Assembly (NCBI GenBank): GCA_027064305.1
Contig: JAMOPY010000023.1
Location: 16,569-48,568 of the forward strand
Direction of reading: 5' to 3'
Origin: Methanobacteriota archaeon
GTDB lineage: Archaea > JAADCQ01 > Methanopyri > Methanopyrales > Methanopyraceae
DNA length: 32,000 nucleotides
Made by a program: the position numbers and the translations under genes. Numbering within the stretch: the first letter of the stretch is position 1; every line of letters starts with the position of its first letter. Below, in pieces: positions 8,720-30,964 of the stretch. Under the pieces are notes generated by a model that did not search any database, was not told the origin of the DNA, and saw only the letters and a list, made by a program, of their open reading frames with translations.

Positions 8720-9519
8720 GCGAGCGCGTCCTGTACCTCGTCGGGGCGGGCCTGGCCGACGTGCGGGACCTCACCGTCCGCGCCCTGAGGACGCTGGCCC
8801 GGGCGGACCTCGTGCTGGTGGACACGTACACGAGCGTGTACGAGCTCCGGGAGCGGGAGCTCCGGCGCCTACTGCGGGCGCTCGGACACGATCCCCCCGA
8901 GATCCGACCGTGCTCGCGGGAGGAGCTCGAGGAGCGGTTCTTCGAGGTGGTGGGGGAGGCCGAGCGGGTGGCCGTGCTCTCGCCGGGGGACCCGATGGTC
9001 GCCACGACGCACGCCACCCTGGCCGTGGAGGCCGCCCGGCGCGGCTGGTCGGTGAGGATCGTGCCCGGCGTGTCGATCCTCACCGCCGGGCCCGGTCGGG
9101 CGGGGCTGGAGCTGTACCGCTTCGGCCGGACCGCCACGATCCCGCTCCGCGTGCGGTCCGTGTACCCGTACGACGTGCTGGAGCGGAACCGGGACGCCGA
9201 CCTGCACACCCTGTTCCTGCTCGAGGCGGCCTCGGAGCGGGAGTACGTGTCCGTGGCGGACGCGGTCCGGTACCTGCTGGAGCTGGAGCGGGAGGAGGGT
9301 CGGGGCGTGGTCTCGCCGGACGACGAGGTGATCGGCGTGCTCCGGCTGGGGTTCGAGGACGAGCTGGTGGTCCGGGGGACGGTCCACGAGATGTCCGGGT
9401 GTTGGGACCCCGGGCCGCCGCAAGCTCTTATATATCCGGCCCGGCTGAGGGGGCCGGAGCGGGAGTTCCTCGAGCTCCTGGTCCCACACGTGCGAGACGC
9501 GCGGAGGCGTGGTGAGTGA
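8710..9519 (+). CDS. dphB: Diphthine synthase
   Basis: [56 protein letters not shown] and [11 protein letters not shown] are present. GTG at 8710 follows GGGGAG (alternative TTG 8716). It overlaps the end of hemC. Confidence 0.85.
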
Positions 9520-9878
9520 CCTTGGCCGAGGGTGAGGGTGGGGACTACCACGTCGTGCTGGAGGCCGCGTGGATCGTGTACAACGTGGACAGCGAGGACG
9601 ATGCCATCAACATCGCCATCGCGGAGGCCGGCAAGCGCCTGAACCGCCACGGCCTGGACTACGTGGACATCGACGTGGGCTTCTTCGAGTGCCCGGAGTG
9701 CGGCGAGGAGATCGAGGGCGTGTGGATCGTGGCCAACACCGCGCTGGTCAGGCTCCTCCTCTCCATGCGCGTGTTCAACGCCGAGAACGAGGAGCACGCG
9801 ATCCGGATCGCGAAGTACGAGATCGGCCAGGCGCTGGAGGACGTGCCGCTCGAGGTCGTGGAGGTCACCCCGATCTAG
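9516..9878 (+). CDS. UPF0212 / DUF555 family protein with CPECG zinc knuckle
   Basis: [30 protein letters not shown]...ECPECGEE...[32 protein letters not shown] matches the archaeal UPF0212 pattern. GTGA overlap with dphB. Confidence 0.7.
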
Positions 9879-10990
9879 AGCCGGTACCGCGCGATCACGT
9901 GCCCCCAGATCAGGGACGACAGCAGGGTGAAGGTGGCCAGCGCGAAGGAGTTCATCGCCCGCGAGAACAGGAAGGCGCCGATCAGGGACTGGATGGAGAA
10001 CGCCATCAGGCACCCGAACAGCAGGGCCTCCCGCGCCGCCAGCTCGGAGGAGAACTCGTACCGCCGGCGCCCCACGTACTCGGACAGGCACCTCGACCCC
10101 ACGTACAGCGTGATCCCGACCCAGAGCGACAGCAGGAACGCGCCCACGTACCCGAAGTCGAACGCCCAGACGAACACGCCCGGGAGCATGTAGTCCAGCA
10201 GGTCCTTCCTCGCGACCAGCGCGCCGTGCAGCGTGGGCACGTTCAGGTTGAACATGACCAGGTACCCCACGGGCAGCGTCACGAACCCGTCCCCGAACCC
10301 GCACCAGTGGTAACCCGCCGGGAGAGACTTGGTGGAGTGGCCCACCAGGTACGCGTTCTTGCGGATGAAATCCAGGCCCGGCACGGTGTACTCCGCGAAC
10401 CGCTTCACCCGCAGCGCCGGGCTGAGCACCGGCTTGTTCAACACCCGAGCCGCCGCCTCCATCAGCAGCAGGAGCCCCACCCCGATCGCGGAGACCGCGG
10501 CGATCACCCGCCGACTCATCTGGCCCGCGCGCGCGGCGAGGGCCCCGATCCTCGTCCCCACCTCCAGCTGCCGCGAGATCAGGTACTCGGTCCCGATCCA
10601 GCAGAGCAGCCAGGAGAGCAGGTAATCCCGGTGCATCACGCCCCCGAAGATCCCGGTGAACAGCCAGAGCGTGTTCAGCACCGGCCGGGTTCGGCGGGCC
10701 GCCGAGATCCCGCGCGCCTCCAGCAGGCCGATCAGGTACCGGGCCGAGGCCCACGCGGCGAGGGTCAAGGGCCCGAACGGGTGCGTGAACTCGTGCCTGG
10801 GGAGGGGGAGGAACAGCGACAGCATGTCCACGAAGAACATCAGCATCAGGACGGCCAGGAGGAGGATGGACAGGGACAGCACGCGCTGGATGGTCACGCT
10901 GGAGTAGGCCAGCGTGAGCGGGACCACGGTGTGGGTCATCAGGAGGAAGTCCACCAGCGCCTCGCCCGTGTTGTGCGGCACCAGGTACAA
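9875..10990 (-). CDS. Polytopic membrane protein (about 8-10 TM) of unknown family, last gene of the cell-wall cluster
   Basis: Multiple long hydrophobic segments plus one large loop ([51 protein letters not shown]). The TTG start lies 1 nt after the upstream stop, behind GAGGGTGG. Confidence 0.65.
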
Positions 10991-10991
10991 G

Positions 10992-12263
10992 CTACCACCC
11001 TCTCACGCGCCGGTACATCAGCTCCCTGACGCACCCCAGCACGATCAGGGTGACGCCCAGGGCGGAACCCACCAGGCCCAGCGCGTGCAGCACCTCCGTC
11101 GGCACGGGCGACTTCATCGGATGCTTCTTGTACCCGCGGGGTAGCGGTCGCATGTACACGGTGACCACGTTTGCCTTCTTCTCCACCTTCACGTCGCTCG
11201 GCAGCACGTAATCGTACCCCAGCAGGGTGTTGTTGTCGATCGCGTTGTCGATGGCCCGCGCGATGTCCTCAGGATCCCGCTTCCCGTGCTGGATCAGCGA
11301 CTGCACGATCTCCACGATGGTCGCCTTGTCGTGGGGGCCCCGAACCCCGTACACGCGCACCACCGGCTGGTTCCGACGCACGGTGATCAGGTCACGCGCC
11401 ACCTGCCAGGCGTACTCGGTCTTCAGCGGCGACCCGCACACCGGGCACCGCGTGTACCGGGCCGCCGTCGGGAAGGGCGCGCTCCACCCGCACTTGGTGC
11501 ACGCCTTCCGGTACGGGGCGTCCATCGGGAACCCCCGCTCGTTGAGCCGGGCGGGCACGAACGTGTCACCGGTGGAGAGGCCGGCGGTGATGTTCACGGC
11601 GCCGCCCCCGTACTTCTCACCGGACTTCTTGGCCACGTACCCCATCACCCGGGCGAGCACCTCCGTCGCCGGCAGCCCGTCCCGGATCATGCGGCCCGCC
11701 ATGATCGCCGCCTCGACGCGGACCCTCGTCGCCGTACCGTAGAGCGGGTTGCCCGGCGTGTTACGCAGGTGAATCACCGCGCACTTCACGTTCGGGGGGA
11801 TCTTGACGATGTTCGGGCCCGAACCGCTGTGATACTGCCGAATGATGATCTTGTTCCCCTTCACGAGGACCACGGCGATGTCGTAGCTACCGCCCACCAC
11901 GATGCCCCGGCGCGGTCCACCCACCAGCAGTCGATCCGTGGGCGACTTCTCGATCCCGGCCCGCACCGCCTCCTCCAGGGGCATCCCCAGCTCCAGCCGC
12001 CGAATGCACGCCAGGATCGCCTCCAGTCGCGCGGTACCCTTACCCAGACCACCCGCCAGCACGGCCACGTGCAGCTTCTTGGACACGAGGAACGTGGACT
12101 GGAACATGTTGGGGGCGAACGACATCGAGCCCGCGGCCGCGCCGTTCGGATCCTTGCCGCTGGGGTCGGTGATGACGATCATGTTAAACGTGGCCGAGGC
12201 GGCCGAGGGAAGCGCGACGAGCAGGGCCAGAACCGCGATCCACCACCGCTCGATGGTCCCCAC
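10992..12263 (-). CDS. Secreted, C-terminally membrane-anchored protein: Ntn-hydrolase-like N-terminus + Cys4 zinc ribbon + unknown domain
   Basis: A Sec-type signal peptide (WWIAVLALLVALPSAASA|TFNMIVITDPSG) would expose Thr as the first residue. CTKCG...CPVCG forms a zinc ribbon. The C-terminal TM helix is LHALGLVGSALGVTLIVLGCV followed by basic residues. The GTG start follows GAGGGGG. Confidence 0.65.
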   Translation of the reverse strand: MGTIERWWIAVLALLVALPSAASATFNMIVITDPSGKDPNGAAAGSMSFAPNMFQSTFLVSKKLHVAVLAGGLGKGTARLEAILACIRRLELGMPLEEAVRAGIEKSPTDRLLVGGPRRGIVVGGSYDIAVVLVKGNKIIIRQYHSGSGPNIVKIPPNVKCAVIHLRNTPGNPLYGTATRVRVEAAIMAGRMIRDGLPATEVLARVMGYVAKKSGEKYGGGAVNITAGLSTGDTFVPARLNERGFPMDAPYRKACTKCGWSAPFPTAARYTRCPVCGSPLKTEYAWQVARDLITVRRNQPVVRVYGVRGPHDKATIVEIVQSLIQHGKRDPEDIARAIDNAIDNNTLLGYDYVLPSDVKVEKKANVVTVYMRPLPRGYKKHPMKSPVPTEVLHALGLVGSALGVTLIVLGCVRELMYRRVRGW

Positions 12264-12269
12264 GCCCCC

Positions 12270-12689
12270 TCAGCGCGGCAGTCCGTAATCCTCGGTCACC
12301 CGGACGACCACGACCCCCGACCTCTTGACCGTGATGTGGACCGACTTGATGGGCTTGATCTTGGTGCCCGGGATCACGCTACGCATGGCGTAGATCCGAG
12401 CCTTACGAATCGCCTCCTGCAGCGGGATGCGCTTACCGTCCGGGGTGATCAGGACCCCGTTCCGCACGACCGACCCCGGGCGCAGTCCCGCCGCCATTAC
12501 GTTGCTCCTCACCACCTCCTCGGGCAGGAAGTCGCACCCGACCACGTCCACGCCGATGATCCTGATCCCCTCCTGCTTGGGCAGCGGCCGGCTCGCCCAC
12601 GCCGTGTACTCGGACAGTCGGCCCAACGCGAACAGGAGCGCGCCCAGCAGCATGATGGCCAGGTTACGCCTCGACACCCTGACTATCAT
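12270..12689 (-). CDS. Bitopic membrane protein with FtsQ/DivIB-like POTRA domain (tentative)
   Basis: MIVRVSRRNLAIMLLGALLFALG gives a short N-terminus and one TM helix. IRIIGVDVVGCDFLPEEVVRSNVMAAGLRPGS...IKSVHITVKRSGVVVVRVTED resembles the FtsQ POTRA pattern (I.V.G...ls.eeV......g.......V.s..V.r..P..l.I.V.E). The ATG at 12689 follows GGGGGTGGTGGG. The longer track ORF start is Cys/Trp/Arg-rich read-through. Confidence 0.5.
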   Translation of the reverse strand: MIVRVSRRNLAIMLLGALLFALGRLSEYTAWASRPLPKQEGIRIIGVDVVGCDFLPEEVVRSNVMAAGLRPGSVVRNGVLITPDGKRIPLQEAIRKARIYAMRSVIPGTKIKPIKSVHITVKRSGVVVVRVTEDYGLPR

Positions 12690-14142
12690 CGCCCACCACC
12701 CCCATCTCCCGCAGGATCCTCCGGGCCGGCTCCATCCCCTGCGCCCCACCCAGCAGCACGACCGTGTCCTCATCACTGAGCTCCAGCGCCCGCTCCAACG
12801 CCTCCTCCAACCGCTCGAAGTGCTCCCAGCTCACCCCACCGCGCCGCAGCTCCTCCAGGAACGCCTCCCGCTCCTCCTCCCGCACCACGTTCGCCTCGTC
12901 CACCAGGCCCTTCGAATCCGTGACCAGGATGCGCACCTCCATCCCCTCCCGCTCCAGCTCCCGGGCCCCCTCCACCAGCGCCCGCGCGATCTCCCGGTTG
13001 ATCTCCGTCCCGCGCGACCCTCGGATGGCGAAGACGATCACGGCCCGGCCCTTACCCAGCCTCCTCAACGCTCGCACCGTCGCCAGGACGCCGTCCGGGT
13101 TGTGACAGAAGTCGTCCACGATCAGCGGGTCCTCCGACAACCGCTCGAACCGGCGCTTCAGCGGCCGGTACGTGCGCAGCCCCTCCGCGACGTCCTCCTC
13201 CCCCACGCCCAGTGCGTGGGCGGCCGCGGTCGCGGCGAGCGCGTTGTACAGGAAGTGATCCACCGGCAGCGGGAACTCCCGAACGGGGATCAACGGCTCG
13301 TCCTCCAGCAGGATCCACTCCTCCCCGTCCACCTCGCTGATCCGGGCGACGCCCTCCTCCCACCCGTACCACACCACGTCCGGCGCGAGCGAGGCCATCT
13401 TCGCCACGCGCTCATCGTCCGCGTTCAGCACCGCGACCCCGTCCTCCAGCGCCCGCACCACCCCGGAGACGGCCTCCGCCATCTCCTCCAGCGAGGAGAC
13501 CAGGTTCGTGTGATCCACGCCCACGTTCGTCACCACGGCCACCTCGCAGCCCAGCGCCCGGGCCATCCGGTACGCGTGATCCTCCATGACCCGGCCGGTC
13601 GGCAGGCCCTGCACCTCCGAGACCTCCACGCACAGGGCGTCCCGCGGCCGGGCCTCGCGGAGCTCCATCGCCACGACGGGATCGATGAGCGTGTTCTTCT
13701 CCGACCGGAAGTCCGTGTTGCAGTACACGTCCCGGCCCGCGACCCGCAGGATGTGCGCCAGCAGGTGGTTGGTGGTGGACTTCCCGTTCGTCCCCGTCAC
13801 GCACACGGTGACGGCGTCGGCCGCGTACCTCCGCTTCGCCAGCCGCAGCGCGTACTCGTTCGCCCGATCCACCTCCGTCAGCACGAGCGGCAGGTCGCGG
13901 CGCCGGCACTCCTCCCGGAGCCGCCCCCGGGGCTCCTCGGTGACCAGGCACGCCACGCCGCGCTCGTCCGCCAGCTCCGCCCCGCGCTCGTCGAGCCACC
14001 ACCGGATCACCACGTCCCCCTCGCCCGCCCGGCCGAGCGTGGAGAACCAGCCGCGGATCCTCCGCTCGGGGTCCCCGACGACCAGCCTCCCGTCCACCCG
14101 CTCGGCCAGCTCCCCCACGGTGAGGTCCAGCAGCGCGATCAC
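12664..14142 (-). CDS. Mur-ligase family peptide ligase (MurE/MurF-like; pseudomurein-type)
   Basis: P-loop VCVTGTNGKSTT, VVTNVGVDHT, VLNADD, HFLYNALAATAAA, RRFE and DDFCHNPDG give the full three-domain Mur ligase layout. GTGA overlap with the upstream MraY-like gene. Confidence 0.85.
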   Translation of the reverse strand: MIALLDLTVGELAERVDGRLVVGDPERRIRGWFSTLGRAGEGDVVIRWWLDERGAELADERGVACLVTEEPRGRLREECRRRDLPLVLTEVDRANEYALRLAKRRYAADAVTVCVTGTNGKSTTNHLLAHILRVAGRDVYCNTDFRSEKNTLIDPVVAMELREARPRDALCVEVSEVQGLPTGRVMEDHAYRMARALGCEVAVVTNVGVDHTNLVSSLEEMAEAVSGVVRALEDGVAVLNADDERVAKMASLAPDVVWYGWEEGVARISEVDGEEWILLEDEPLIPVREFPLPVDHFLYNALAATAAAHALGVGEEDVAEGLRTYRPLKRRFERLSEDPLIVDDFCHNPDGVLATVRALRRLGKGRAVIVFAIRGSRGTEINREIARALVEGARELEREGMEVRILVTDSKGLVDEANVVREEEREAFLEELRRGGVSWEHFERLEEALERALELSDEDTVVLLGGAQGMEPARRILREMGVVGDDSQGVEA

Positions 14143-15206
14143 CCCGCGAGCCAGAGGGCGATGCCCGCGCAGACGGCGCCGGCCATCCAGTGCAGCGCCA
14201 CCACGACCGGCTCGGGCAGGTCGTACTTGTACTGGAGGTGGTGATGCAGCGGCTCCACCGCGAGCTTGATCACGCCCGCCCGGTGCAGGAGGCTGATGAT
14301 CGTGGACCCGACGGGCACGCCCAGGGCGACGACGGCGGGCACCTCGATCTTGTAGTACAAGGCACCGGCCGCGTACGCGGCCCCCAGGAAGCAGCTGCCC
14401 GTGTCACCCATGAAGATCTTGGCCGGGTACCGGTTGTGGAACAGGAAGCCCAGGGAGGCGCCGGCGAGCGACGCGAAGAACGCGGCCCCGGGGAGCTGGT
14501 TGTGGACCAAGCACACCCCGGAGCACGCCAGAGAGGCGAGGAACAGCAGCCCCGCGGCCAGCCCGTCCATCCCGTCGATCAGGTTCACCGCGTTGGTGGC
14601 CCCGACCACGCCGAAGATCGCCAGCGGGTAGAACAGCCAGGACAGGTCGATCGCGCCGAGGTGCGGGAACCAGAGCCACGTGGCGGGCACGATGGGGAGC
14701 ACGAACAGGGCGGCCCCGGCCTGCAGCGCCAGCTTCTCCCGCTCGCTCAGCTCCTTCTTGACCGGGACCTCACCCACGATCTCGATCTTGTCCGGGGCCT
14801 CCCGCATCAGCCGCTTCAGGTCCCGCTTGGCCCGCTCCGTGGCCACGCGCGCCTCCTCACCGGGCTGCAGCACGAGCCGACCGATCCGGATCGGCTCATC
14901 GGAAACGTTCTTCACCACCTTCTGAAACTCCTTCACCTGCAGCCCGAGCAGGTCGTCCACCACGCCCAGCACCAGCATCGGGAGCGCCGAGGCGACCGGA
15001 GGGAGCGCCTGGATCGACACCAGGAGCGGCCCCGCGACCGTGCCCAGCAGGATCCCGAACCCTCCCATGATCGGCGTGCCGGCCTTGTGCGAGTGCTCCG
15101 TGACGATCGGACGGTCCACCACCCTGGCCTCCCGCATGTACCGGCGAAGCAGCCGCACGGTGACCCAGGACGTCACCGTGGAGATCGAGAACGTCTCCAC
15201 GATCAA
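14139..15206 (-). CDS. MraY-type polyprenyl-phosphate phospho-sugar/peptide transferase (GT4 family)
   Basis: DRPIVTEHSHKAGTPIMGG, LGVVDDLLGL, NAVNLIDGMDGLAAG, HNRYPAKIFMGDTGS and the MraY-specific EPLHHH motif are present. The TTG start follows GGGGAGGAG. Confidence 0.85.
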   Translation of the reverse strand: MIVETFSISTVTSWVTVRLLRRYMREARVVDRPIVTEHSHKAGTPIMGGFGILLGTVAGPLLVSIQALPPVASALPMLVLGVVDDLLGLQVKEFQKVVKNVSDEPIRIGRLVLQPGEEARVATERAKRDLKRLMREAPDKIEIVGEVPVKKELSEREKLALQAGAALFVLPIVPATWLWFPHLGAIDLSWLFYPLAIFGVVGATNAVNLIDGMDGLAAGLLFLASLACSGVCLVHNQLPGAAFFASLAGASLGFLFHNRYPAKIFMGDTGSCFLGAAYAAGALYYKIEVPAVVALGVPVGSTIISLLHRAGVIKLAVEPLHHHLQYKYDLPEPVVVALHWMAGAVCAGIALWLAG

Positions 15207-15222
15207 CGCGCTCCTCCCCGCC

Positions 15223-16362
15223 CTACAGGAACTTGCCGGCCTCCCTGATCCTCAACTCAAACTCCTTCTCCGCCAGCCGCACGTTCGCGCCCGCCGCCCG
15301 GAAGGCCGACCGCAGCCTCTCGAACGCCTCCTTAAACGATTCACCCCGGACGGTGATCCTCCCGGCCACGTCCATCCGGCCCCGGTACTCGTAGAACACG
15401 TGGTACGCTCCCCCGTCGAACCGCTCCCTAAGGGGCTCCCGACGGGACGCGTTCCACACCGGACACTCGATCGCGTGCCAGACCTTCCTGACCCGGGGCG
15501 GCCGCCAGCGCCCCACCACCATGTCCACGAGCTCCCGCAGCGGCCAGACTCCGGAACAGCCCGAGGTCATGTACCGCGTGCCGCTGGGCCGCGGGTTGAA
15601 CTCCAGGAACCAGAACTCATCCTCCCGCACCACCACGTCGAAGTCGACCGTCCCCTCCAGCCCCAACCGCTTCACGAGCCGAACCGCGCAGCGCTTGATC
15701 CCCCGCTCCACCGACCCGTCCAGCGGGGCCGGCGCCAGCCGCATCCGCTCGATCGGGTGATCCTCGTCCAGCGTCGAACCCTTGAACACCGGCACGAGCG
15801 GCACGACCTCCCCGTCCCAGGACAGCACCTCGATCGACACCTCCGCCCCCTCGACGAACTCCTCCACCAGCCGCCTCCCGTGCACCCGGGGCACCGACCG
15901 CTCGTACACGTTCACGTTGATCCCGGCCTGCGACCTCGGATCCTTCACCACGAGCGGCGGGCGCAGCCGGGGCCGCTCATCCTCCACCACCTCCCACTCC
16001 GGCGTCGGGATGTTCAGCTCCTCGAACGCCCGCTTCGCCCGGATCTTGTCCACCCCGGTCCGCGTCCCCTCCAACCCCGAGGCGGCGACGGGGATCCCCT
16101 CCGACTCCAGCCGCTCCTTCATTTCCGCCACCTCAAGCAGCGGATCGTCCACGCCGATGAGCGGGACCACCCCGTCCACCTCCCGCTCGAGCGCGATCCG
16201 CGCCGGGTGCTCCATGCCCCGGGGCACGAAGTGCACCTCGTCCGCCAGCTCCCAGTCCCAACTCTCCGGGTTCGACTCGGTCAGGATCCGGTACACCCCG
16301 GTGGACCCGGCGTACTCCGCCACGTCCCGGAACAGCCGGGCCCCCACGAACAGGACCCTCAA
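15223..16362 (-). CDS. ATP-grasp ligase (Ddl / CarB-like)
   Basis: KIRAKRAFEELNIPTPEW, PLVVKD, LVEEFVEGAEVSIEVL and WFLEFNPRPSGT show the ATP-grasp fold pattern. A TTG start at 16362 is inferred from the GGAGGAGGG SD and a TTGA overlap with the upstream stop. The track ORF start at 16593 is Gly/Arg read-through. Confidence 0.8.
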   Translation of the reverse strand: MRVLFVGARLFRDVAEYAGSTGVYRILTESNPESWDWELADEVHFVPRGMEHPARIALEREVDGVVPLIGVDDPLLEVAEMKERLESEGIPVAASGLEGTRTGVDKIRAKRAFEELNIPTPEWEVVEDERPRLRPPLVVKDPRSQAGINVNVYERSVPRVHGRRLVEEFVEGAEVSIEVLSWDGEVVPLVPVFKGSTLDEDHPIERMRLAPAPLDGSVERGIKRCAVRLVKRLGLEGTVDFDVVVREDEFWFLEFNPRPSGTRYMTSGCSGVWPLRELVDMVVGRWRPPRVRKVWHAIECPVWNASRREPLRERFDGGAYHVFYEYRGRMDVAGRITVRGESFKEAFERLRSAFRAAGANVRLAEKEFELRIREAGKFL

Positions 16363-17897
16363 CCCTCCTCCCCCAGCTCCTCCTCGAGCTCCCTCAGCAC
16401 GTCCTCCTTGAACTTCAGCGCCGCCTCCCCGAACACCACGATCACCTCGCACCCCGACTCCAACGCCGCCCGCAGCCCGTCCAGCACCTGCTCCCGGGAG
16501 GCGCCCAGCGTCCCCCGCTTCTCGAACCGCTCCGCGGCGCTCTCCGCCGCCACCACGTTGTCCGCCCCCACCTCCTCGAGCACCCGGTAGCACGCGTGCG
16601 AGGCCGCGATCACCCGGTCCGCGATCCGGGCCGCCCGCTCCAGGATCTCACGATCCCCCTCCGGGCCCAGCTCCGAGGCCACCGCGATGACCGCGCACAG
16701 GCGCCGGTCCGGGTACGCCTGCCTCAGGCACCGCAGGGTCGCCTCCACGCCCGCCGGGTTGTGACCGTAGTCGACGATCACCACCCGCTCCCCATCGTCC
16801 CACACGACGTCGAGCCGACCCTCCACCCCCTCGAACGAGCCGAGGGCCCGCGCCACCTCCTCCGGGTCCAGGTCCAGGAACTCGATGCAGACGGCCGCGG
16901 CCGCCACGGCGTTGTACACGTTATGCAGCCCCATCACGGGCAGGCCAACCTCGAACTCACCCTCCGGGCAGGCCAGCGTGAACCCGTCCAGAGAGACGTC
17001 CACGGCCAGGTAGTCCGGGGACGGCGTCTCCAACCCGCACTCGCACCGGAAGTCGCCCACCCACGGAAGGATCTCCCTCACCTCCGCCCGCCCACCGCAC
17101 CAGCACTCCTTCTCCACGGTCCCCACGGGCTCCGCCTCCACCCCGAAGTAAACGACCTCCCCCTCGAACCCCACCTCCTCCGGCGCGCCCACCACCAGCG
17201 GATCCTGCGCGTTCAGCACGGCCACCTCCACCGAGTCCGGCTCGAGCAGCTCGATCTCGCACCGCGCGTACGTCCGGAAGTCCCCGGCCTTGTTCAGGTG
17301 ATCCGGCGTGATGTTCGTCAGGCACGCGCACTCCACCTCCGCCCACCTCGCCGCCTCCAGGATCTCCCCCCGCTCCCCGAACGTCGCGATCTCCAGCACG
17401 CTCACGTCACCCGGCAACCGCGCCTGCAGCGGGGGCAGGTACCCCACGTTCCCCTGCATCCCCGGCAGCCCGTGATCCCGCACCTCCAGCCCCAGCTCCC
17501 GGCACACGTGCCGTATCATCGCCACGGTCGTCGTCTTCCCGTTCGTACCCCCCACGCCCACCACCGGCCGGGTGGGGGGAATCCGCTCGAGCACGTCCTC
17601 CACCTCGTACACCCGGCACCCGTACCGACGGGCCAGCCGGTACGGAGGTGACCCCTCCTCCAGGCTGGGCGGCGGGACCACCGCGTCCGCCCGCCGAAAC
17701 AGCCACTCCGGGTGGCCCCCCAGCACGACCTCCACGTTCGGGTACTCCAGCAGCGGGTCCAGCAGCTCGCACTCCTCCTCGTCCTTCACGTCCGAGGCGA
17801 TCACGTGGTAGTCCCGCTCCGCGAGCACCCGGGCCACCAGGTTGCACACGGGCCCGCACACGCCGATCACCAGCACCGTGCGCCCCTGCACGCGCAT
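16359..17897 (-). CDS. Mur-ligase family peptide ligase (MurD/MurC-like N-terminal Rossmann domain; Cys4 insertion)
   Basis: RTVLVIGVCGPVCNLVARVL (MurD-like domain 1), VGVGGTNGKTTT, LTNITPDHL, VLNAQD, GLHNVYNAVAAAA and VDYGHNPAG are present. The ATG at 17897 follows GAGGGGG. The upstream 332 aa of the 844-aa track ORF is out-of-frame read-through of the PP-loop gene. Confidence 0.85.
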   Translation of the reverse strand: MRVQGRTVLVIGVCGPVCNLVARVLAERDYHVIASDVKDEEECELLDPLLEYPNVEVVLGGHPEWLFRRADAVVPPPSLEEGSPPYRLARRYGCRVYEVEDVLERIPPTRPVVGVGGTNGKTTTVAMIRHVCRELGLEVRDHGLPGMQGNVGYLPPLQARLPGDVSVLEIATFGERGEILEAARWAEVECACLTNITPDHLNKAGDFRTYARCEIELLEPDSVEVAVLNAQDPLVVGAPEEVGFEGEVVYFGVEAEPVGTVEKECWCGGRAEVREILPWVGDFRCECGLETPSPDYLAVDVSLDGFTLACPEGEFEVGLPVMGLHNVYNAVAAAAVCIEFLDLDPEEVARALGSFEGVEGRLDVVWDDGERVVIVDYGHNPAGVEATLRCLRQAYPDRRLCAVIAVASELGPEGDREILERAARIADRVIAASHACYRVLEEVGADNVVAAESAAERFEKRGTLGASREQVLDGLRAALESGCEVIVVFGEAALKFKEDVLRELEEELGEEG

Positions 17898-17902
17898 CCC
17901 CC

Positions 17903-18922
17903 TCAGACCCGCGTCCCCGGGATCCTCCGACCGTACTCCCGCAACAGTTCCCGCATCAACGCCCGCGTCCCCTCCAGGAGCCTCCGGGCCGTCCCCTCGT
18001 CCCGCTCCACGGCGAGCCGGGGCAGGTGCTCGTACCCTAAATCGTCGACCCGATCGTCGATCTCGGAGTACTCGTAAAGCACCGCGTGCAGCTGCGCGAA
18101 CCGCTCCGTCCGCACGATCCGGTTCAACGTCCCGCTCAGGTACGACCGCAGCGCCCGCTCCAGGAACATCAGCAGCCGGTACGTGAGGTCGCGCACGATC
18201 TCTTCCTCGTCCCTCGGACCCTCCGGCACCCCACCCTCGAACACCCGGTGCAGCTCCAATCCCAGCCGCTCCTCCACCTCTCCCGCGTCCCACTCCGGGG
18301 TCTCCGTCTCGATCAGGTACTCCAGGCACGCCCGCGGCGAGGCCACTCGCTCCACCATCAGCGAGCAGGCGCGGCCCGTGAGCGGGTTGTACCCGACCCG
18401 CTCGATGAACCGGTGCACCCCGTAGGGTCGGATGGGGCACGTGTACCCCTCGTCGAACCAGCCCAGGCCCGAGACGATCTCGCCCACGTCCTCCCACGTC
18501 CACCGGCGCAGCGCCGGGTACCGGACCATCGTCACCCCGGGCGGGTACGGGTGCGCCACCCGCCGCCCGTACTTCCCCTTCAGCTCGTGGCCCGTGAGGA
18601 CCGTGAGCAGCCCCAGTCGCTTGGCCCGCAGGCAGGCGGCGGTCAGCACCGTCCGGGCGCACTTGGTGCAGATGGGCAGGCCGCGGCGCAGGGCGCGGCG
18701 GAACCACCCCCGCAGGCGCACCCGAACGAGCTCGTGCCTCAGCCCCAGCCGCTCCGCGCACCGACGGGCGTTCTCCAGGCACGTCCCGTCCAGGAACTCG
18801 TGCACGACCGTGACCGCCGCCTCCACCCGCCAGCGCTCGGACGCGTGCAGGGCCGTGGCCACGCTGTCCCGACCGCCGGAGAGGGCCACGCACGCCGGGT
18901 TGCTGGGATCAGTCGTGCGCAT
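17903..18922 (-). CDS. PP-loop (SGGxDS) ATP pyrophosphatase superfamily protein with helical C-terminal domain
   Basis: ACVALSGGRDSVATALHA is a canonical PP-loop. CTKCARTVLTAACLRAKRLGLLTVLTGHE resembles the adenine-nucleotide alpha-hydrolase core. The C-terminal roughly 150 aa is acidic, helical and unassigned. The ATG lies 14 nt inside the end of gltX. Confidence 0.7.
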   Translation of the reverse strand: MRTTDPSNPACVALSGGRDSVATALHASERWRVEAAVTVVHEFLDGTCLENARRCAERLGLRHELVRVRLRGWFRRALRRGLPICTKCARTVLTAACLRAKRLGLLTVLTGHELKGKYGRRVAHPYPPGVTMVRYPALRRWTWEDVGEIVSGLGWFDEGYTCPIRPYGVHRFIERVGYNPLTGRACSLMVERVASPRACLEYLIETETPEWDAGEVEERLGLELHRVFEGGVPEGPRDEEEIVRDLTYRLLMFLERALRSYLSGTLNRIVRTERFAQLHAVLYEYSEIDDRVDDLGYEHLPRLAVERDEGTARRLLEGTRALMRELLREYGRRIPGTRV

Positions 18923-20627
18923 ACACGGCCCTCACACCGCTCGGTCGACACTCCTCGATCCGGGCGAAGTACAGCCGCTCGAACTGCACGGTGCGTCCCG
19001 GCTCCTCCCGCTCCACGTTCGCCTCCACGTAGCCCTCGTCCACCGACCCGTCCGGCCGTAGCACCCGGCACGGGATCGCCTGGTCCGTCGGCACCCAGTG
19101 CACGATCCGGGCCCCCTCACGCCGCGCGGCCCGGTAGTCCTCCCCCTCGTACCGGCCCCGCACGACGCCCTCACCCACCTCCTCGACCCTCACGTTCACC
19201 GCGTTCATCAGCCGGATCAGCTCACCCTCCTCCAGCGCCTCCCCGTCCTCCCGATCCAGCCAGACCCGGCAGCCGCCGTCCTCCGGGTGCAGCACGAGCG
19301 CCCGCTCGCCCCGGTCCTCGTCCGGGTGCAGCGGCAGCGTGGCCGCGAACGGCTCCTCCAGGCCCTCGATCCACAGCTCCACCGGGTCCCGGACGAGGAA
19401 GTACCGGTTGGACTTCGGATCGATCAGGCGCCGGTTGCGCGCGTACAGCTGCTCCCAGCTGAAGGTCGCGTCCACCTCCGTCAGCCCGATCTCCAGGATC
19501 GTCTCCCGGAGCGCCTCGGGCTCGATCCCCCGCCGCCGCAGCGCGCGCAGCGTCGCCGTCCGCACGTCGTCCCAGCCCGTGAGCTCGCCGGACTCGATCC
19601 CCTCCCGGATCCTGGACGTGCTCAGCACGGTCCCCTCCACCTTCAGGATCCCGTAGTGCACGTACTCCGGCGGCTCCCAGTCCAGGTGCCGGAACACGAA
19701 CTCCTGCCGGCGCGTGTTCGACTCGTGATCCTTCCCGCGCAGGACGTGCGTGACCTCCATGAAGTGATCGTCCACGGCCACGGCGAAGTTCATTGTCGGC
19801 CAGACGAGGTACCGGTCGCCCACCATCGGGTGCTCCCGCTCCACGATCCGGAACGCGACCCACTCCCGCGCGGCCGGGTCCGGGTGGTCCACCCGCGTCT
19901 TCACCCGAACGACCGCCTCCCCCTCCGAGAACGCCCCGTCCAGCATCTCCTCCCACAGCTCCAGGTTCTCCTCCGGATCCCGGGACCGGCACGGGCAGGC
20001 CTGGCCCCGATCCCGCAGCCGCCGAAACTCGTCCGCGTCGCACGTGCAGACGTACGCCCCGCCCCGCTCCAGCAGCTCCTCCGCCACCCGGTAGTACAGC
20101 TCCATCCGGTTCGACTGCACGTACCGCTCGTCCACCCGCACGCCCAGCCACTCCAGGTCCTCCTCGATCATGTCGTACGCCTCCGGGTCCACCCGCCGCG
20201 GGTCCGTGTCCTCGAAGCGCAGGATCAGCGCGCCGTCGTACCGGCGGGCGTACTCGTCGTTGAGCACCGCCGCCCGCGCGTGACCCAGGTGCAGCGGGCC
20301 CGACGGGTTGGGGGCGAACCGCAGCCGAACCTCGCCCTCCCGGGCGCCGGGCAGCGGCTTCAGGCCGCCCTCCTCCTCCGACCGCTCCTCCTCCACCCCG
20401 CCCAGCTCCTCCAGCTCCCGCCGGATCTCCTCCAGGGACATCCGGTTGACCTCCTCGACCACCTCCCGGACGAGCCGGAGCACCTCCTTGGCCCGATCCC
20501 GGTACTCCTCGTGCTCCCGCATCACCTTCTTCATGACCGCGTTCGGGTTCGCCCGGCCGTCGTACTTGGCCGCGTTCTCCAGCGCGTACCGGCGGATCAC
20601 CTCCCTCAACTCCTCCAGCTCGCTCAC
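18909..20627 (-). CDS. gltX: Glutamyl-tRNA synthetase (archaeal type)
   Basis: RFAPNPSGPLHLGHARAAVLN (HIGH), LRFEDTDP, HVLRGKDH and GTVLSTSRIR are present. GTG at 20627 was chosen because GGGGAGG lies 7 nt upstream. The 45-aa N-terminal extension in the track is Pro/Gly/Arg-rich. Confidence 0.9.
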   Translation of the reverse strand: MSELEELREVIRRYALENAAKYDGRANPNAVMKKVMREHEEYRDRAKEVLRLVREVVEEVNRMSLEEIRRELEELGGVEEERSEEEGGLKPLPGAREGEVRLRFAPNPSGPLHLGHARAAVLNDEYARRYDGALILRFEDTDPRRVDPEAYDMIEEDLEWLGVRVDERYVQSNRMELYYRVAEELLERGGAYVCTCDADEFRRLRDRGQACPCRSRDPEENLELWEEMLDGAFSEGEAVVRVKTRVDHPDPAAREWVAFRIVEREHPMVGDRYLVWPTMNFAVAVDDHFMEVTHVLRGKDHESNTRRQEFVFRHLDWEPPEYVHYGILKVEGTVLSTSRIREGIESGELTGWDDVRTATLRALRRRGIEPEALRETILEIGLTEVDATFSWEQLYARNRRLIDPKSNRYFLVRDPVELWIEGLEEPFAATLPLHPDEDRGERALVLHPEDGGCRVWLDREDGEALEEGELIRLMNAVNVRVEEVGEGVVRGRYEGEDYRAARREGARIVHWVPTDQAIPCRVLRPDGSVDEGYVEANVEREEPGRTVQFERLYFARIEECRPSGVRAVYAHD

Positions 20628-20843
20628 GGGCACCCTCCCCGTCGCCTCCCTCTCCGGACAAGCAGCGGTGATCGTGAGGGACGGGGGTGTCCCCCGCCCT
20701 CCGGTCCCGGGCTCATTGAACGGCGACGGCCGCCTCACCCGGGGGACCCAGACGGGGGTCATCCTTTTGGAGGATCTGACCCCCGTCCCGCCGCCCCGGG
20801 CGGGGTTTAAGTAGTTCCCCGGAGCCCGGCCCGCGGAGAAAGG

Positions 20844-20851
20844 TTTTTATA
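20844..20851 (+). promoter_or_regulatory. TATA box of the tRNA-Lys promoter
   Basis: AAAGGTTTTTATAC. The TTTTTATA element lies about 31-38 nt upstream of the mature tRNA 5' end, in otherwise very GC-rich DNA. Confidence 0.55.
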
Positions 20852-20881
20852 CGACGCGGCGCCCCCGCGTGAACGGACGCC

Positions 20882-20959
20882 GGGCCGGCAGCTCAGTCTG
20901 GCTAGAGCGCGGGACTTTTAATCCCGTGGTCCCGGGTTCAAATCCCGGCCGGCCCACCA
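20882..20959 (+). tRNA. tRNA-Lys: tRNA-Lys (anticodon UUU), genomically encoded CCA, C at position 8
   Basis: Hand-folded cloverleaf. Acceptor stem GGGCCGG/CCGGCCC, D stem GCTC/GAGC, anticodon stem CGGGA/TCCCG with loop CTTTTAA, variable loop TGGTC, T stem CCGGG/CCCGG with loop TTCAAAT, discriminator A, then CCA. Confidence 0.9.
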
Positions 20960-22804: not shown

Positions 22805-24040
22805 TTACCCCGGTCGGAACCTCAGCAGCGCACCCAGGCCGCCGAACGCCTGGTGGAACTGCGCGCCCTCCTCCGTCTCGGTTGAAATTATCTCCACCCG
22901 AGCCCCCGTCCGCTCCGCCAGCTCCAGGTAGTAGTCCACGAGCTCCTTCACGTCCTCCACCTCCAGCTCGGCCTCACCGCACTCCGGGCACTCCCCGGCC
23001 CGCTCCCTCGCCTCCTCCTTGCTCCGAACCGTGACCACCTCCTCGTGACCGCACTCCGGGCACCGGAGCACCGCCTTGTACCCCTCCAGCTCCTCCGAGA
23101 TCAGCAGCGTCTCCACGGCCCCCATCCGCAGCATCCTCTCCACCTCATCCTCCCCGTACGCCGCCAGATCCCCGTTGACCGCCTCCTCCATGAACCGCCG
23201 CACCAGCCGCTTCTCCCGGACCAGCTCCGCCTCCTTGAGCGCGTCCTCCGCCTTGTTCAGCGCCTCCCGGATCCCCGACTCGTCCGTGTTCCCCACATCC
23301 ACCACGGCGATGACCTTCTCCTTCAGGTCCTTGGGCAGGTAGTCCCCCTCCAGGAACTCCTCCTTCGTCGGGCCCGGACCGCCCACGATGATCCCCTTCA
23401 GGTTCTCCACCTCCTCGAAAACCTCCCGCGCGGCCTCACCCACCTCCTGGTAGAACTCGTGCGCCGCGTGCTCGATCAGCCGATCGAAGCGCCGCTGCGA
23501 CTGCCCGCCCGCCTTGTGCTTACCCGGCACATCCGACTTAAGCCGCTTCTTCACCTCAACCCGCTTACCCTTGACCAGCCCGATCGTCGCCTCCCGACGG
23601 TCCATGACCAGCACGCCGTACACATCCTTATCCTCGAGACACTCCTTCAGGGGCTCCAGGTAAAACCTGGAATCGCACCGGTAAATGAACCGATCCACCG
23701 GCTCGGGCGGCTCGATTAGCTCCGCCACCATCTTCTCCTTCGTGCCTTCTTTAACCGTACCGACCAACACCACCAACCCGTTCTCCGGGGTCTCACCCAC
23801 GGTCTTGAGCCTTTGAATAACCACCTCAATTGCGGACTGAACGTTCTTCCGCGTCCTCTTACTCTTGATATTACTCGCCTGAGAGTACTCCTCCCTCATC
23901 ATTGCGATCACATCGCTCAACCGCTTCTCCGGCGGAATGTATATCGTGATCAGCTCCGTACCCTCGCCCTCCAGGCTCTCCAACCGCTCTAGCATTCTTT
24001 TGAACTTGTACCGTTCCACGCTCTCGGAGGTCGCCTCCAA
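22805..24040 (-). CDS. prf1: Peptide chain release factor aRF1
   Basis: The NIKS motif (QASNIKSKRTRKNV), GGQ motif (KHKAGGQSQRRF) and GTELITIYIPP are present. The C-terminal domain carries a CPECG...CPECG zinc-ribbon mini-domain. The TTG start follows GGGGGAG. Confidence 0.95.
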   Translation of the reverse strand: MEATSESVERYKFKRMLERLESLEGEGTELITIYIPPEKRLSDVIAMMREEYSQASNIKSKRTRKNVQSAIEVVIQRLKTVGETPENGLVVLVGTVKEGTKEKMVAELIEPPEPVDRFIYRCDSRFYLEPLKECLEDKDVYGVLVMDRREATIGLVKGKRVEVKKRLKSDVPGKHKAGGQSQRRFDRLIEHAAHEFYQEVGEAAREVFEEVENLKGIIVGGPGPTKEEFLEGDYLPKDLKEKVIAVVDVGNTDESGIREALNKAEDALKEAELVREKRLVRRFMEEAVNGDLAAYGEDEVERMLRMGAVETLLISEELEGYKAVLRCPECGHEEVVTVRSKEEARERAGECPECGEAELEVEDVKELVDYYLELAERTGARVEIISTETEEGAQFHQAFGGLGALLRFRPG

Positions 24041-24057
24041 CCGGGCTCCCCCAGGGG

Positions 24058-24738
24058 GTGATCGGGCTGTACGCGGTCGTGGCGCTCGGCGGGTCCGTGC
24101 TCAACGTGCGGAACCCGGACCGGATCCGGGAGGCCGCGGACCTCATCTCCGAAGCGCTGGAATCCGGGCTGAAAACCTGCGTCGTCGTCGGTGGGGGCCC
24201 CGTCGCCCGTGAGTACATAAACGTAGCGCGAGACCTCGGGGCGCCCGAGACCGCCCTCGACGAGCTCGGCATCACGGTGACCCGACTGAACGCCGCCCTC
24301 CTCAACCTCGCGCTCGGCCGGCCCGGGACCGACGTCCCGGAAACCCCCTCGGAAGCCGCGGAAACGGTCCGCCGGGAGGGCGTGGCCGTCTGCGGGGGCA
24401 CGCACCCGGGCCACACCACCGACGCCGTCGGGGCCATGATCGCCGAGCTCCTGCAGGCCCCGCTCATCATCGTCACCAACGTGGACGGGATCTACGACCG
24501 GGACCCGAGCGAGCCGGGCGCCCGGAAGTTCCGGGAGATCAGCGCCCGCGAGCTCGAGCGGCTGGCCTTCGAGGCCGACCTGGAGGCCGGCGGCAGCTTC
24601 GTGGTCGATCCCGTCGCGACCAAGATCATCCGCCGCGGCCGCGTGACCACCCACGTCCTGTCCTGGGATGACTTCAAAAGCGCCGGGATCCGGGGGACCC
24701 TCCGGGGCCGGCACGACGGCACGATCGTCCGGGGGTGA
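24058..24738 (+). CDS. pyrH: Uridylate (UMP) kinase, archaeal type
   Basis: VVALGGSVL, VVVGGGPVAREY, GGTHPGHTTDAVGAMIAE, VTNVDGIYDRDP and VVDPVATKII are present. GTG start. Confidence 0.9.
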   Translation: MIGLYAVVALGGSVLNVRNPDRIREAADLISEALESGLKTCVVVGGGPVAREYINVARDLGAPETALDELGITVTRLNAALLNLALGRPGTDVPETPSEAAETVRREGVAVCGGTHPGHTTDAVGAMIAELLQAPLIIVTNVDGIYDRDPSEPGARKFREISARELERLAFEADLEAGGSFVVDPVATKIIRRGRVTTHVLSWDDFKSAGIRGTLRGRHDGTIVRG

Positions 24739-27241: not shown

Positions 27242-28384
27242 TCACGCCTGCTCGACCTCCAGGCCCATGCCGAGGAGCTCCTGCAGTACCTCCTCGACGA
27301 ACCGGGCGTACCGGCCGCGCTGCCCCATGAACGGGCCGAAGTCCCGCCGGTCGATCCACACCTTCAGGTTCGGGCCCGCGATGTCCACGTCGACGATGCG
27401 CTCCCCGATCCACGGGACCGGGTGGATGTCCGCGATGAAGTCGATGAAGTCCAGCGTCAGGTGCGTGACGACGATCCGCATGTTCGTCTCCGCCTCGATG
27501 TTCTCGATCCGCTCGCCCCCCGTGCCGACCACCCGGCCCACGTGCCCCTCCTTGGTCACGATCACGGCCTGCGGCACGTTCTCCGTGTCGATCTCCAGGT
27601 CCTCGGCGATGGGCTCCACGTACAGGACCGTGAGCACGTCGGCGTCCGGCGCCTCCACCCGGACCACGTCCATGATCTCCCGCTCCACGTCGTTCAGCTC
27701 GCGGTTGCGGACGCGGATCTCCAGCTGCAGGTGCACGCCCCGCTCCGCGCCCGGCCGCACGATGTCCCGCGTGCCCAGGTCGATCACCGCGGCCTTGGGC
27801 TCCTCGGCCAGGATCTCCCGCATGACCGTCGCGCCGCACCGCTCCACGTCGATGTCCTTCTGGAAGACCGGATCGCCCGTGATCAGCAGGCGCGAGTTGT
27901 GACCCATCCGCGCCAGTACCTCGCCCGCGTTCTCCGGCAGCATGTTCTGAACCTCGTCCAGCAGGATCACGGCGTCGTCGAACGTGCGCCCCCGGACGAA
28001 GTGCGTGTCCACGATCATGATCTTCTCCTCATCGATCATCCGCCGGAGCTCCTTCCGCCCCGTGAACTGCGAGAGCACGTCCATCACCGGCGTGACGACC
28101 ATCTCCTCGAACTTCTCCGGCACGTCGGCGGAGCTCATCTCCTCCTTCGTCGCCACGTCCACGAGCGGCCGCGTGACGATGAACCGATCGTACTCGCCCT
28201 CCATCACCGCCTTCACGCCGTACGCGGCGCAGAAGAGCGTCTTACCCGTACCCGTCGGCCCGAACGCGGCCACGATCTCGTTCTCCTCGTCCAGCAGGGC
28301 CTCGTACAGCTCCTTCTGACCGTCCGTCTGGGGCTCCACCCCGAGCAGGTCCTCCACCATCCGCCGCGCACCCCCGGCCGTCAT
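27242..28384 (-). CDS. PhoH-like P-loop ATPase fused to two KH (RNA-binding) domains
   Basis: AAFGPTGTGKTLF (Walker A) and AVILLDEVQN (Walker B) follow the PhoH pattern. GHVGRVVGTGGERIENIE and GPFMGQRGRYARFVEEV are KH GxxG loops. ATGA overlap with the uppS stop. Confidence 0.8.
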   Translation of the reverse strand: MTAGGARRMVEDLLGVEPQTDGQKELYEALLDEENEIVAAFGPTGTGKTLFCAAYGVKAVMEGEYDRFIVTRPLVDVATKEEMSSADVPEKFEEMVVTPVMDVLSQFTGRKELRRMIDEEKIMIVDTHFVRGRTFDDAVILLDEVQNMLPENAGEVLARMGHNSRLLITGDPVFQKDIDVERCGATVMREILAEEPKAAVIDLGTRDIVRPGAERGVHLQLEIRVRNRELNDVEREIMDVVRVEAPDADVLTVLYVEPIAEDLEIDTENVPQAVIVTKEGHVGRVVGTGGERIENIEAETNMRIVVTHLTLDFIDFIADIHPVPWIGERIVDVDIAGPNLKVWIDRRDFGPFMGQRGRYARFVEEVLQELLGMGLEVEQA

Positions 28385-29160: not shown

Positions 29161-29239
29161 CGCGCGACGCGGATTCACGGACGCGATGCGACCGAACGCG
29201 GACGTTAACCCCTCCCACCCCCTGACGGGGGTTGAACCG

Positions 29240-29734
29240 TTGATCGGGCTGATCTCGGACACCCACGACAACCTGCGAGCCGTGCGCGAGCTGGCGGACC
29301 GAATGAACGACGAGGGCGTCGAAGTCGTGCTGCACGCCGGCGACTACGTCGCTCCCTTCACGCTCCCCGAGCTCGCGAAAATCGACTGCGAGGAGTTTAT
29401 AGGCGTTTTCGGAAACAACGACGGGGAGCGCGATTTCCTCCGCGAGAAGGCGGAAGAGGTCGGCTTCAACCTGGTCGGCGAGGTCTTCACGGGCGAGGTC
29501 CTGGGACTGAAGGTCGCCATGGTGCACGGGACCGAGGAGGCCATCGTCGAGGCCCTCGCCCGCTCCGGCCAGTACGACGTGGTCGTCTACGGCCACACCC
29601 ACGAGCCCGAGGAGCGCCGGGTGGGCGACACCCTCGTCGTGAACCCCGGCGAGGCCTGCGGGTACGTGACCGGCCGCCGCACCGCGGCCCTCCTGGACCC
29701 CGACGAACGAACGGTCAAGCTGATCGAGTTCTGA
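29240..29734 (+). CDS. MJ0936/YfcE-type metallophosphoesterase
   Basis: IGLISDTHDN, VLHAGDYV, GVFGNNDGE, MVHG and VVYGHTHEP are the calcineurin-like phosphoesterase motifs. TTG start at 29240. Confidence 0.8.
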   Translation: MIGLISDTHDNLRAVRELADRMNDEGVEVVLHAGDYVAPFTLPELAKIDCEEFIGVFGNNDGERDFLREKAEEVGFNLVGEVFTGEVLGLKVAMVHGTEEAIVEALARSGQYDVVVYGHTHEPEERRVGDTLVVNPGEACGYVTGRRTAALLDPDERTVKLIEF

Positions 29735-30952: not shown

Positions 30953-30964
30953 GCGGGTAGCGCG

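Follow-up and report, generated by a model that had tools for sequence, protein, structure and literature searches.

A Methanopyrales copy of the pseudomurein gene cluster and fold-based leads for three of its envelope proteins

We analysed a 32,000-nucleotide stretch of DNA from an uncultured archaeon of the Methanopyraceae (contig JAMOPY010000023.1, positions 16,569 to 48,568 of the forward strand; hereafter the window), in which eight closely packed minus-strand genes, here numbered g1 to g8, lie downstream of the glutamyl-tRNA synthetase gene gltX. Judged by its gene families and gene order, the locus is the published pseudomurein cluster, known as Gene Cluster 2 or cluster A, in its Methanopyrales layout; it comes from a relative of Methanopyrus with a G+C content of ~70% across the window. 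We consider it very probable that the locus as a whole is best explained as this published cluster, with roles for g6, g7 and g8 that can be proposed from their folds, with g1 standing outside wall synthesis, and with gltX as the first member of a nine-gene transcription unit.

Six of the genes, g2 to g7, had a curated pseudomurein model as their best NCBIfam match. For the four enzymes (g2-g5), this match led the next family by 200 to 500 bits, and for g6 and g7 there was no meaningful second match. The g2 product (16359..17897), a peptide ligase of the Mur ligase family, matched pMurC (NF053645) at 609 bits, passing the cut-off of 560, versus only 76 bits for pMurD1, so its earlier label of ‘MurD-type ligase’ was wrong. 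The ATP-grasp protein g3 (15223..16362; Pfam ATP-grasp_3), a homologue of Mfer760 of the Ddl_archaea or small CPS-like type, matched NF053643 (E 3e-97, 325.9 bits, cut-off 500), with model positions 1-362 of 367 aligned to residues 1-348. The MraY-family transferase g4 (14139..15206; Mfer761 homologue; Pfam Glycos_transf_4, E 2e-34) matched MraY_archaea NF053644 (E 9e-132, 439.5 bits, cut-off 450), and the peptide ligase g5 (12664..14142; Mfer762 homologue) matched pMurE NF053648 (E 7e-169, 562.5 bits, cut-off 600). The bitopic, 139-residue g6 protein (12270..12689) belongs with the Mfer763 family (NF053641, E 4e-47, 159.7 bits, cut-off 170) and the exported g7 protein (10992..12263) with the Mfer764 family (NF053642, E 8e-162, 538.6 bits, cut-off 560). 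Coverage of the models was full length, except for g3, where it was near-full. Five of these six matches lie under their curated equivalog cut-offs, which counts against the assignment; orthology of the genes concerned is nonetheless supported by synteny and by the 78% identity of g7 to its Methanopyrus kandleri counterpart, and the cut-offs appear to be tuned to Methanobacteriales.

These families and their grouping are already described. Gene Cluster 2 consists of Ddl/CarB (Mfer760), MraY (Mfer761), pMurE (Mfer762), Mfer763 and Mfer764, and sometimes includes pMurC or pMurD1 (Subedi 2021, PMC10117817); the same gene set was named cluster A by Lupo 2025 (PMC11915815). The latter study also described the polytopic protein OG0000796, which all five of the tested pseudomurein archaea possess and which is exclusive to such archaea; in Methanopyrus sp. 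KOL6, its gene directly follows that of the Mfer764 homologue. Mfer763, Mfer764 and OG0000796 were all found to be exclusive to pseudomurein-walled archaea (Lupo 2025, PMC11915815). Biochemically, a pMurC orthologue adds Ala or Thr to UDP-Glu (UDP, uridine diphosphate), and a pMurE orthologue adds Lys to UDP-Glu-Ala (PMC12996149). The window has the identical genes in the identical order (ATP-grasp, MraY-like, pMurE, Mfer763, Mfer764), includes pMurC as some published cluster types do, and carries the OG0000796 homologue, g8 (9875..10990), in the position seen in strain KOL6; it differs in coming from an uncultured 70%-GC lineage. A reading made from the sequence alone had recognised a pseudomurein biosynthesis cluster, and the NCBIfam models and both published studies (PMC10117817, PMC11915815) bear this out. 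It had presented the cluster as new, however, when earlier work had already described it, reported that it is restricted to pseudomurein lineages and put forward Mfer763, Mfer764 and OG0000796 as candidates; what the window provides is a new lineage’s copy.

The arrangement was compared across 84 loci, of which 80 were genome loci around Mfer764 (g7) homologues and four others were taken around g8 homologues, with all proteins mapped. The core of ATP-grasp, MraY-like, pMurE, Mfer763 and Mfer764 genes was present in 71-83 of the loci and was co-linear in at least 58; g3 held a conserved position in 71 and g6 was present in 81, and pMurC lay within the cluster in 14. Only five Methanopyrales-type loci (L002-L006) had gltX, g1, g8 and a DUF555 gene adjoining the cluster, and in these the gene order was kept at 53-97% amino-acid identity. 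The window proteins are identical to those of an 84.6-kb Joint Genome Institute (JGI) metagenome contig; the closest genomes, two metagenome-assembled genomes labelled ‘Methanobacteriota archaeon’ (L005 and L006), showed 94-97% and 78-92% identity, and the Methanopyrus-type contigs L002-L004 showed 53-84%. The flanking genes (DUF555, hemC, eIF5A, agmatinase-like and argS) are also syntenic with Methanopyrus.

Homologues of g7 and g8 with a named source came only from Methanopyrus, Methanobacterium, Methanobrevibacter or Methanobacteriaceae, apart from one locus labelled Methanomicrobiales, and those of g8 only from Methanopyrus and Methanobacteriaceae. The survey, the homologue searches and the published distribution (Lupo 2025, PMC11915815) thus agree that g6, g7 and g8 occur in other pseudomurein producers and are restricted to them. 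The proposal that the four then unassigned genes of the cluster are candidates for steps of pseudomurein assembly is upheld for these three; for the fourth, g1, it is not, as set out below. The pseudomurein cluster at the odd locus (L009, JBNGDB010000017.1), from a metagenome-assembled genome labelled ‘Methanomicrobiales archaeon’, is typical of the Methanobacteriaceae type and has a g7 homologue at 45% identity; mislabelling or contamination of the bin is the probable reason, not pseudomurein in Methanomicrobiales. Separately, many Methanobrevibacter contigs (L014, L018, L020, L022, L024, L029 and others), with loci measuring roughly 16.4-17.5 kb, end ~5-6.5 kb downstream of the Mfer764 homologue, which suggests that a repeat recurs at a conserved spacing from the cluster and breaks the assemblies.

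The g7 protein begins with a signal peptide, followed by an invariant Thr25 at the predicted cleavage site and a domain of the α-β-β-α type resembling N-terminal nucleophile (Ntn) hydrolases; a Cys-knuckle, a small α/β domain and a C-terminal membrane anchor (a helix with a positively charged tail) complete it. An AlphaFold2 model built from 42 sequences had a pLDDT (predicted local distance difference test) score of 84. The top eight Foldseek matches to this model were without exception to human Taspase-1 in a circularly permuted version (E 3.5e-6 to 3.9e-5, probability 1.0), which we take to be an engineered form whose chain starts at the nucleophile Thr. Proteasome β, plant asparaginase β and phosphoribosyl pyrophosphate amidotransferase followed lower down, and template-modelling (TM) scores were 0.29-0.43. 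Family members share a hydrophobic signal sequence, then [V/A/S]-x-A, then T25-x-N27, with T25 in all 41 sequences and A24 in 40 of them, and the first β-strand of the model (E25-31) begins at T25. At residue 26, directly after this Thr, 30 of the 42 family members have Cys (T-C-N); the window, L005, L006 and M. kandleri have Phe.

The simplest reading of the model and the alignment is that g7 may be an exported Ntn-type amidase, whose catalytic N-terminal Thr would be exposed by signal peptidase and not by autoproteolysis. It would share with type-2 asparaginases and Taspase-1 the α-β-β-α fold and a Thr that opens the first strand of the predicted mature chain. The known members, however, are α-β precursors in which autoproteolysis exposes the Thr, whereas in g7 the order is permuted and the Thr would become exposed when the signal peptide is removed; g7 also has no Pfam Asparaginase_2 signal and carries the additional Cys-knuckle, α/β domain and membrane anchor. 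The model, the Taspase-1 matches and the conservation of T25 are in keeping with the exported, enzyme-like protein of the sequence-only reading. The Zn ribbon that it had also assigned to g7 does not carry over to the family, in which only two Cys are invariant (C255 and C273) and positions 258 and 276 hold Cys in some members and Asp in others.

For g8, an AlphaFold2 model from 36 sequences reached a pLDDT of 83 and a predicted TM score (pTM) of 0.83. Among 350,542 PDB chains, Foldseek found two matches with a probability over 0.2, namely 8bh1_A from the FtsWIQBL divisome core (probability 0.99, TM 0.41) and the O-antigen ligase WaaL (7tpg_B; probability 0.96, TM 0.41). We infer from its length and the all-helical match that 8bh1 chain A is FtsW. 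FtsW and WaaL belong to one structural class of lipid-linked-glycan transferases. By the positive-inside rule, g8 has nine hydrophobic transmembrane helices and a conserved 87-residue outer loop (residues 184-270), and 22 of its 34 conserved polar residues are located at the outer face (D55, H66, E67, H70, H120, R121, E178, R194, R197, H218, K262, D263, D266, Y267, D278, Y281, Q334 and R344, among others). This clustering is consistent with a conserved cavity that faces outward, as in the SEDS fold. The polytopic character given to g8 from sequence is matched by a predicted fold that resembles FtsW and WaaL.

Like SEDS proteins (FtsW, RodA) and WaaL, g8 is predicted to be a polytopic helical bundle with a large outer loop before the C-terminal helix bundle and with conserved charged residues on the outer face. 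It differs from them in having no detectable sequence homology, nine hydrophobic transmembrane helices rather than 10 or 12, and no recognisably conserved HTDF catalytic motif. We rejected g8 as a member of the SEDS family, since hhalign gave only 0.3% probability for the g8 family against an 80-sequence SEDS profile that we had built from a metagenome scan. A by-eye match of ‘LEYLP...GEELGYVG’ in FtsW with ‘LDYMLP...AFDFGYVG’ in g8 was treated as unproven, and hhalign of g8 against Escherichia coli FtsW found no link. Plausibly, then, g8 works like an enzyme of the FtsW or WaaL type, though it is no demonstrable SEDS member. Three Methanobacteriales genomes show a conserved pairing in which a DUF1002 gene immediately precedes the g8 homologue, both on the same strand, in the order radical-SAM wyosine gene, DUF1002, g8 (L001 8960-11083; L087 5046-7083; L088 2191-4483); the DUF1002 protein is a possible functional partner of g8.

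The g6 protein combines an N-terminal membrane anchor with one extracytoplasmic POTRA-like domain. Its family profile (21 sequences), searched against the PDB, matched only BamA POTRA domains (6j09_A at E 3.7e-4 and three more below E 1), in agreement with the POTRA-like label given from sequence, and one family member matched Pfam POTRA at E 0.049. The Pfam scan of the family gave no FtsQ_DivIB_C signal, and 139 residues leave room for one domain only. On this evidence, g6 is POTRA-like and is not a member of the FtsQ family.

Placed in order, these proteins would provide a route from cytoplasmic precursor to wall. In the steps that are shown or published, pMurC, pMurE and perhaps the ATP-grasp enzyme work in the cytoplasm on the stem peptide in its UDP-activated form, and the MraY-like enzyme moves the precursor onto a polyprenyl phosphate carrier. 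Going by its fold, g8 would then polymerise (or ligate) the lipid-linked unit at the outer face of the membrane, most likely as a glycan polymerase. The Ntn-like fold of g7 suggests that its N-terminal Thr25 would become acylated with the stem peptide, with transfer to a Lys amine (cross-linking) or hydrolysis to follow, and g6, as a bitopic single-POTRA protein, may scaffold g7 and g8. A bolder version, to which we give only a minority chance, is that g6, g7 and g8 together would be the archaeal counterpart of the bacterial FtsQ-FtsI-FtsW synthase core, made from different parts: an FtsW/WaaL-fold polymerase, an Ntn transpeptidase and a minimal single-POTRA scaffold.

Several points weigh against these role assignments. 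The POTRA reading of g6 draws on one marginal profile match and on an hhalign placement on the FtsQ POTRA segment at only 0.7% probability. For g7, neither the PDB profile search nor the Pfam scan of 42 members returned a sequence signal of Asparaginase_2 or of any other Ntn family, a comparison with E. coli IaaA by hhalign gave 0.5% probability, and PP2C phosphatases, which have a similar sandwich fold, also match the model, at E 1e-3 (a 100- to 1000-fold worse E-value). For g8, no sequence relation to SEDS proteins was found by the Pfam scan (36 members), by the PDB profile search, which was empty, or by the hhalign comparison above; its structural TM score is only 0.41, and its gene is unlinked to the cluster in Methanobacteriales. 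Other candidates for the cross-linker have also been published, namely transglutaminases and a sortase E-like protein.

Could the fold matches of g7 and g8 be generic, a sandwich and a helical bundle, in proteins with structural or other non-catalytic roles? The low TM scores of both proteins would fit this, as would the PP2C matches of g7 and the want of sequence-level support for either fold. We nevertheless judge it unlikely: FtsW and WaaL, the only chains of the 350,542 to exceed the probability threshold for g8, both act on lipid-linked glycans; the top eight matches of g7 are a permuted Taspase-1 that starts at the nucleophile, which fits the invariant Thr at the signal-peptidase site; and invariant polar motifs of the kind typical of enzymes are dense in both families.

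A different catalytic division of labour is a stronger contender, though we still think it doubtful. Here g7 would serve as a hydrolase of pseudomurein or as a maturation peptidase, either an autolysin opening the sacculus or an enzyme of stem trimming, and g8 would be a flippase or a WaaL-like ligase that joins glycan to wall or protein. Most characterised Ntn enzymes of the Taspase and asparaginase class are hydrolases and not transferases; the ligase WaaL matches g8 as well as FtsW does, and the transglutaminases and sortase E-like protein proposed elsewhere could supply the cross-links. Set against this, γ-glutamyl transpeptidase is an Ntn enzyme that transpeptidates γ-glutamyl bonds, which pseudomurein contains. 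For g8, Subedi 2021 (PMC10117817) reports no FtsW or FtsI (penicillin-binding protein, PBP) orthologues, so that a polymerase is missing, and lists a separate flippase homologue.

Extracellular polymerisation and cross-linking of pseudomurein strands have been unsolved since the polymer was described in the 1970s, and pseudomurein archaea have neither penicillin-binding proteins nor recognisable SEDS enzymes. In the literature that we could search, we found no prior assignment of Ntn, FtsW/WaaL or POTRA folds to Mfer764, OG0000796 or Mfer763, and the assignments for g7, g8 and g6 are new leads of moderate strength: Mfer764 as Ntn-type, OG0000796 as FtsW/WaaL-like and Mfer763 as POTRA-like replace the label ‘conserved hypothetical’ by hypotheses with named catalytic residues. 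They partly support the functional guesses made from sequence alone. Were the bolder version above true, g6 to g8 would supply the long-missing extracellular steps of pseudomurein assembly, and g7 would be a β-lactam-insensitive transpeptidase with a catalytic Thr unmasked by signal peptidase. How the strands are polymerised and cross-linked bears on selective inhibitors of gut and rumen methanogens and on the debate over a shared ancestry of murein and pseudomurein.

The sequence-only reading had gone further and seen in the locus a bacterial dcw (cell-wall and division) cluster, mirrored far more completely than by its ligases alone. Both the locus and E. coli dcw (mraZ to ftsZ) contain Mur-family ligases, an ATP-grasp ligase and an MraY-family transferase, and by fold only, the POTRA protein g6 (compare FtsQ) and the FtsW/WaaL-like polytopic g8 add to the likeness. 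The order of genes differs from that in E. coli, however, and PBP/FtsI, MurG, FtsL/B and FtsA/Z are all missing; the pseudomurein ligases use UDP-Glu, not UDP-MurNAc, and the exported enzyme g7 is Ntn-like and no penicillin-binding protein. Gene Cluster 2 had already been found to have an order unlike dcw, and pseudomurein methanogens to be without FtsL, FtsI, FtsQ and FtsW orthologues (Subedi 2021, PMC10117817). ‘Dcw-like’ thus holds as a functional analogy only.

The remaining gene, g1 (17903..18922), encodes a PP-loop ATP pyrophosphatase-like protein and is the sole gene of the eight not covered by the literature; neither PMC10117817 nor PMC11915815 treats the overlapping gltX-g1 pair at the upstream end. 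A word-seeded search found eight homologues, all Methanopyrus-like, in every one of which the SGGxDS PP-loop (S15-G-G-x-D19-S20) is invariant. The protein also carries an invariant C85-x-x-C88, C97 and C162, and a GHE motif. Its weak matches to QueC, LarE and TtuA cover the PP-loop segment; it falls below all Pfam and NCBIfam cut-offs, and its C-terminal helical region is without recognisable relatives. When 1.84 billion representative proteins were searched exhaustively with a profile, one family cluster alone fell below E 1e-30; more distant relatives, at E 1e-26 to 1e-12, came from unnamed archaeal metagenome-assembled genomes, Thermococcus and Methanothermococcus, those of Thermococcus being annotated ‘TilS-like type 2’ or QueC. 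No g1 homologue was found in any Methanobacteriales locus surveyed or, by homologue searches, in Methanobacteriales generally.

The best relative of g1 with a solved structure was the tRNA thiolase TtuA (Pyrococcus horikoshii PH0300), at E 0.019, in an alignment that runs through the PP-loop, PxCxxC and GH motifs and places C85xxC88 on the PxCxxC of TtuA; C162 is a candidate for the third cluster-ligand Cys. As in TtuA/TtcA-type PP-loop tRNA thiolases, the SGGxDS, PxCxxC and GH motifs are present, but g1 is without the zinc-finger extensions of TtuA, its C-terminal half is unrelated and the E-value is only 0.019. In Methanothermococcus, which has no pseudomurein, 1.6 kb separate gltX from a distant relative of g1 encoded on the opposite strand (L172 1744-5933), recalling the adjacency of gltX and g1 in Methanopyrales; when the neighbourhoods of the distant relatives were checked for functional hints, nothing beyond this proximity to gltX was found.

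It had been proposed that all eight genes, g1 included, form a dedicated dcw-like wall operon in which each unassigned gene supplies a missing step, g1 presumably that of stem modification. The position of g1 speaks for this, packed as it is against pMurC with a 5-nucleotide gap here and a 4-nucleotide overlap in L002, and kept there in all five Methanopyrales-type loci. Asparagine-synthetase-type PP-loop enzymes amidate bacterial stem peptides, and the pseudomurein of Methanopyrus is reported to be chemically distinct in that it contains ornithine; a lineage-specific modifier is conceivable on these grounds. We regard the proposal as quite unlikely, given the absence of g1 from Methanobacteriales, its distant kin in Thermococcus, Methanothermococcus and unclassified archaeal metagenome-assembled genomes, the TtuA match including its CxxC, the overlap with gltX and the proximity to gltX in Methanothermococcus, and a gene order and content unlike dcw. 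A role for g1 as stem-peptide amidase or modifier was accordingly rejected as the leading reading, on the phyletic pattern and the TtuA-like motifs. Because it is confined to Methanopyrales, has kin in archaea without pseudomurein and overlaps gltX, g1 is probably a Methanopyrales-only gene unrelated to the wall. With moderate confidence, we think that g1 is most likely co-transcribed with gltX and encodes a PP-loop enzyme that modifies nucleotides or tRNA, and we strike it from the list of candidate wall genes.

All eight minus-strand open reading frames were found at the coordinates first assigned to them. From gltX (18909..20762, minus strand; Pfam tRNA-synt_1c, E 6e-83) to g8, the junctions also agree with that first reading: a 14-nucleotide overlap, a 5-nucleotide gap, a TTGA overlap, a 16-nucleotide gap, a GTGA overlap, a 26-nucleotide overlap (g5/g6), a 6-nucleotide gap (g6/g7) and a 1-nucleotide gap (g7/g8). 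Third-position GC was 0.84-0.98 in seven of the eight frames, and the frame of g2 was confirmed instead by its pMurC match. Purine-rich motifs of the GGAGG/GAGGG type precede nearly every start of g1 to g8. The start chosen for g6 fits its family (residues 1-136 aligned to positions 1-135 of the 137-position Mfer763 profile), and those of g8 and g1 fit database proteins of identical length. Since the order gltX, g1 to g8 and convergent DUF555 recurs in five other Methanopyrales-type genomes, including the overlap of gltX with g1, this is no chance run of open reading frames.

The operon had been read as beginning at g1. A scan for AT-rich elements found only one with at least 7 of 8 positions A or T between the gltX ATG and the g8 stop, and two TATA-like boxes, GTATAAAAAC and TACTTAAA (20806..20852, minus strand), 45-90 nucleotides upstream of the gltX ATG. 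These boxes sit in a 120-nucleotide spacer bounded by a tRNA-Lys(UUU) gene (20882-20959, plus strand; ARAGORN, Rfam 67.9 bits) that lies between argS and gltX and is divergent from gltX, and they are a candidate promoter for the whole unit. Because of this distribution of AT-rich elements, the transcription unit probably comprises nine genes, from gltX through g8, and starts at the gltX promoter, with internal promoters possible. At its far end, the DUF555 gene (9516-9878, plus strand) is convergent with g8, and their ends overlap by 4 nucleotides (9875-9878), leaving no room for a terminator between them; this arrangement is kept in L002-L006.

Elsewhere in the window, 9.5 kb upstream of the cluster, is a UppS-like cis-prenyltransferase gene (28381-29343, minus strand; Pfam Prenyltransf, E 4e-82), whose product could make the lipid carrier for the MraY-like enzyme. 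A gene for an LPG_synthase_TM-family membrane protein is found at 30953-31999 (plus strand). AT-rich elements at 23.7-24.0 kb looked periodic, but a repeat array was rejected, as there is no array and the elements lie inside the aRF1 (eRF1) gene (22805-24100, minus strand), a stretch with several such elements and the lowest GC of the window (0.62). Domain 3 of this aRF1 spans 136 residues against a model of 106 positions and also matches Zn-ribbon models (Elf1-like, HypA), which suggests a Zn-ribbon insertion in that domain.

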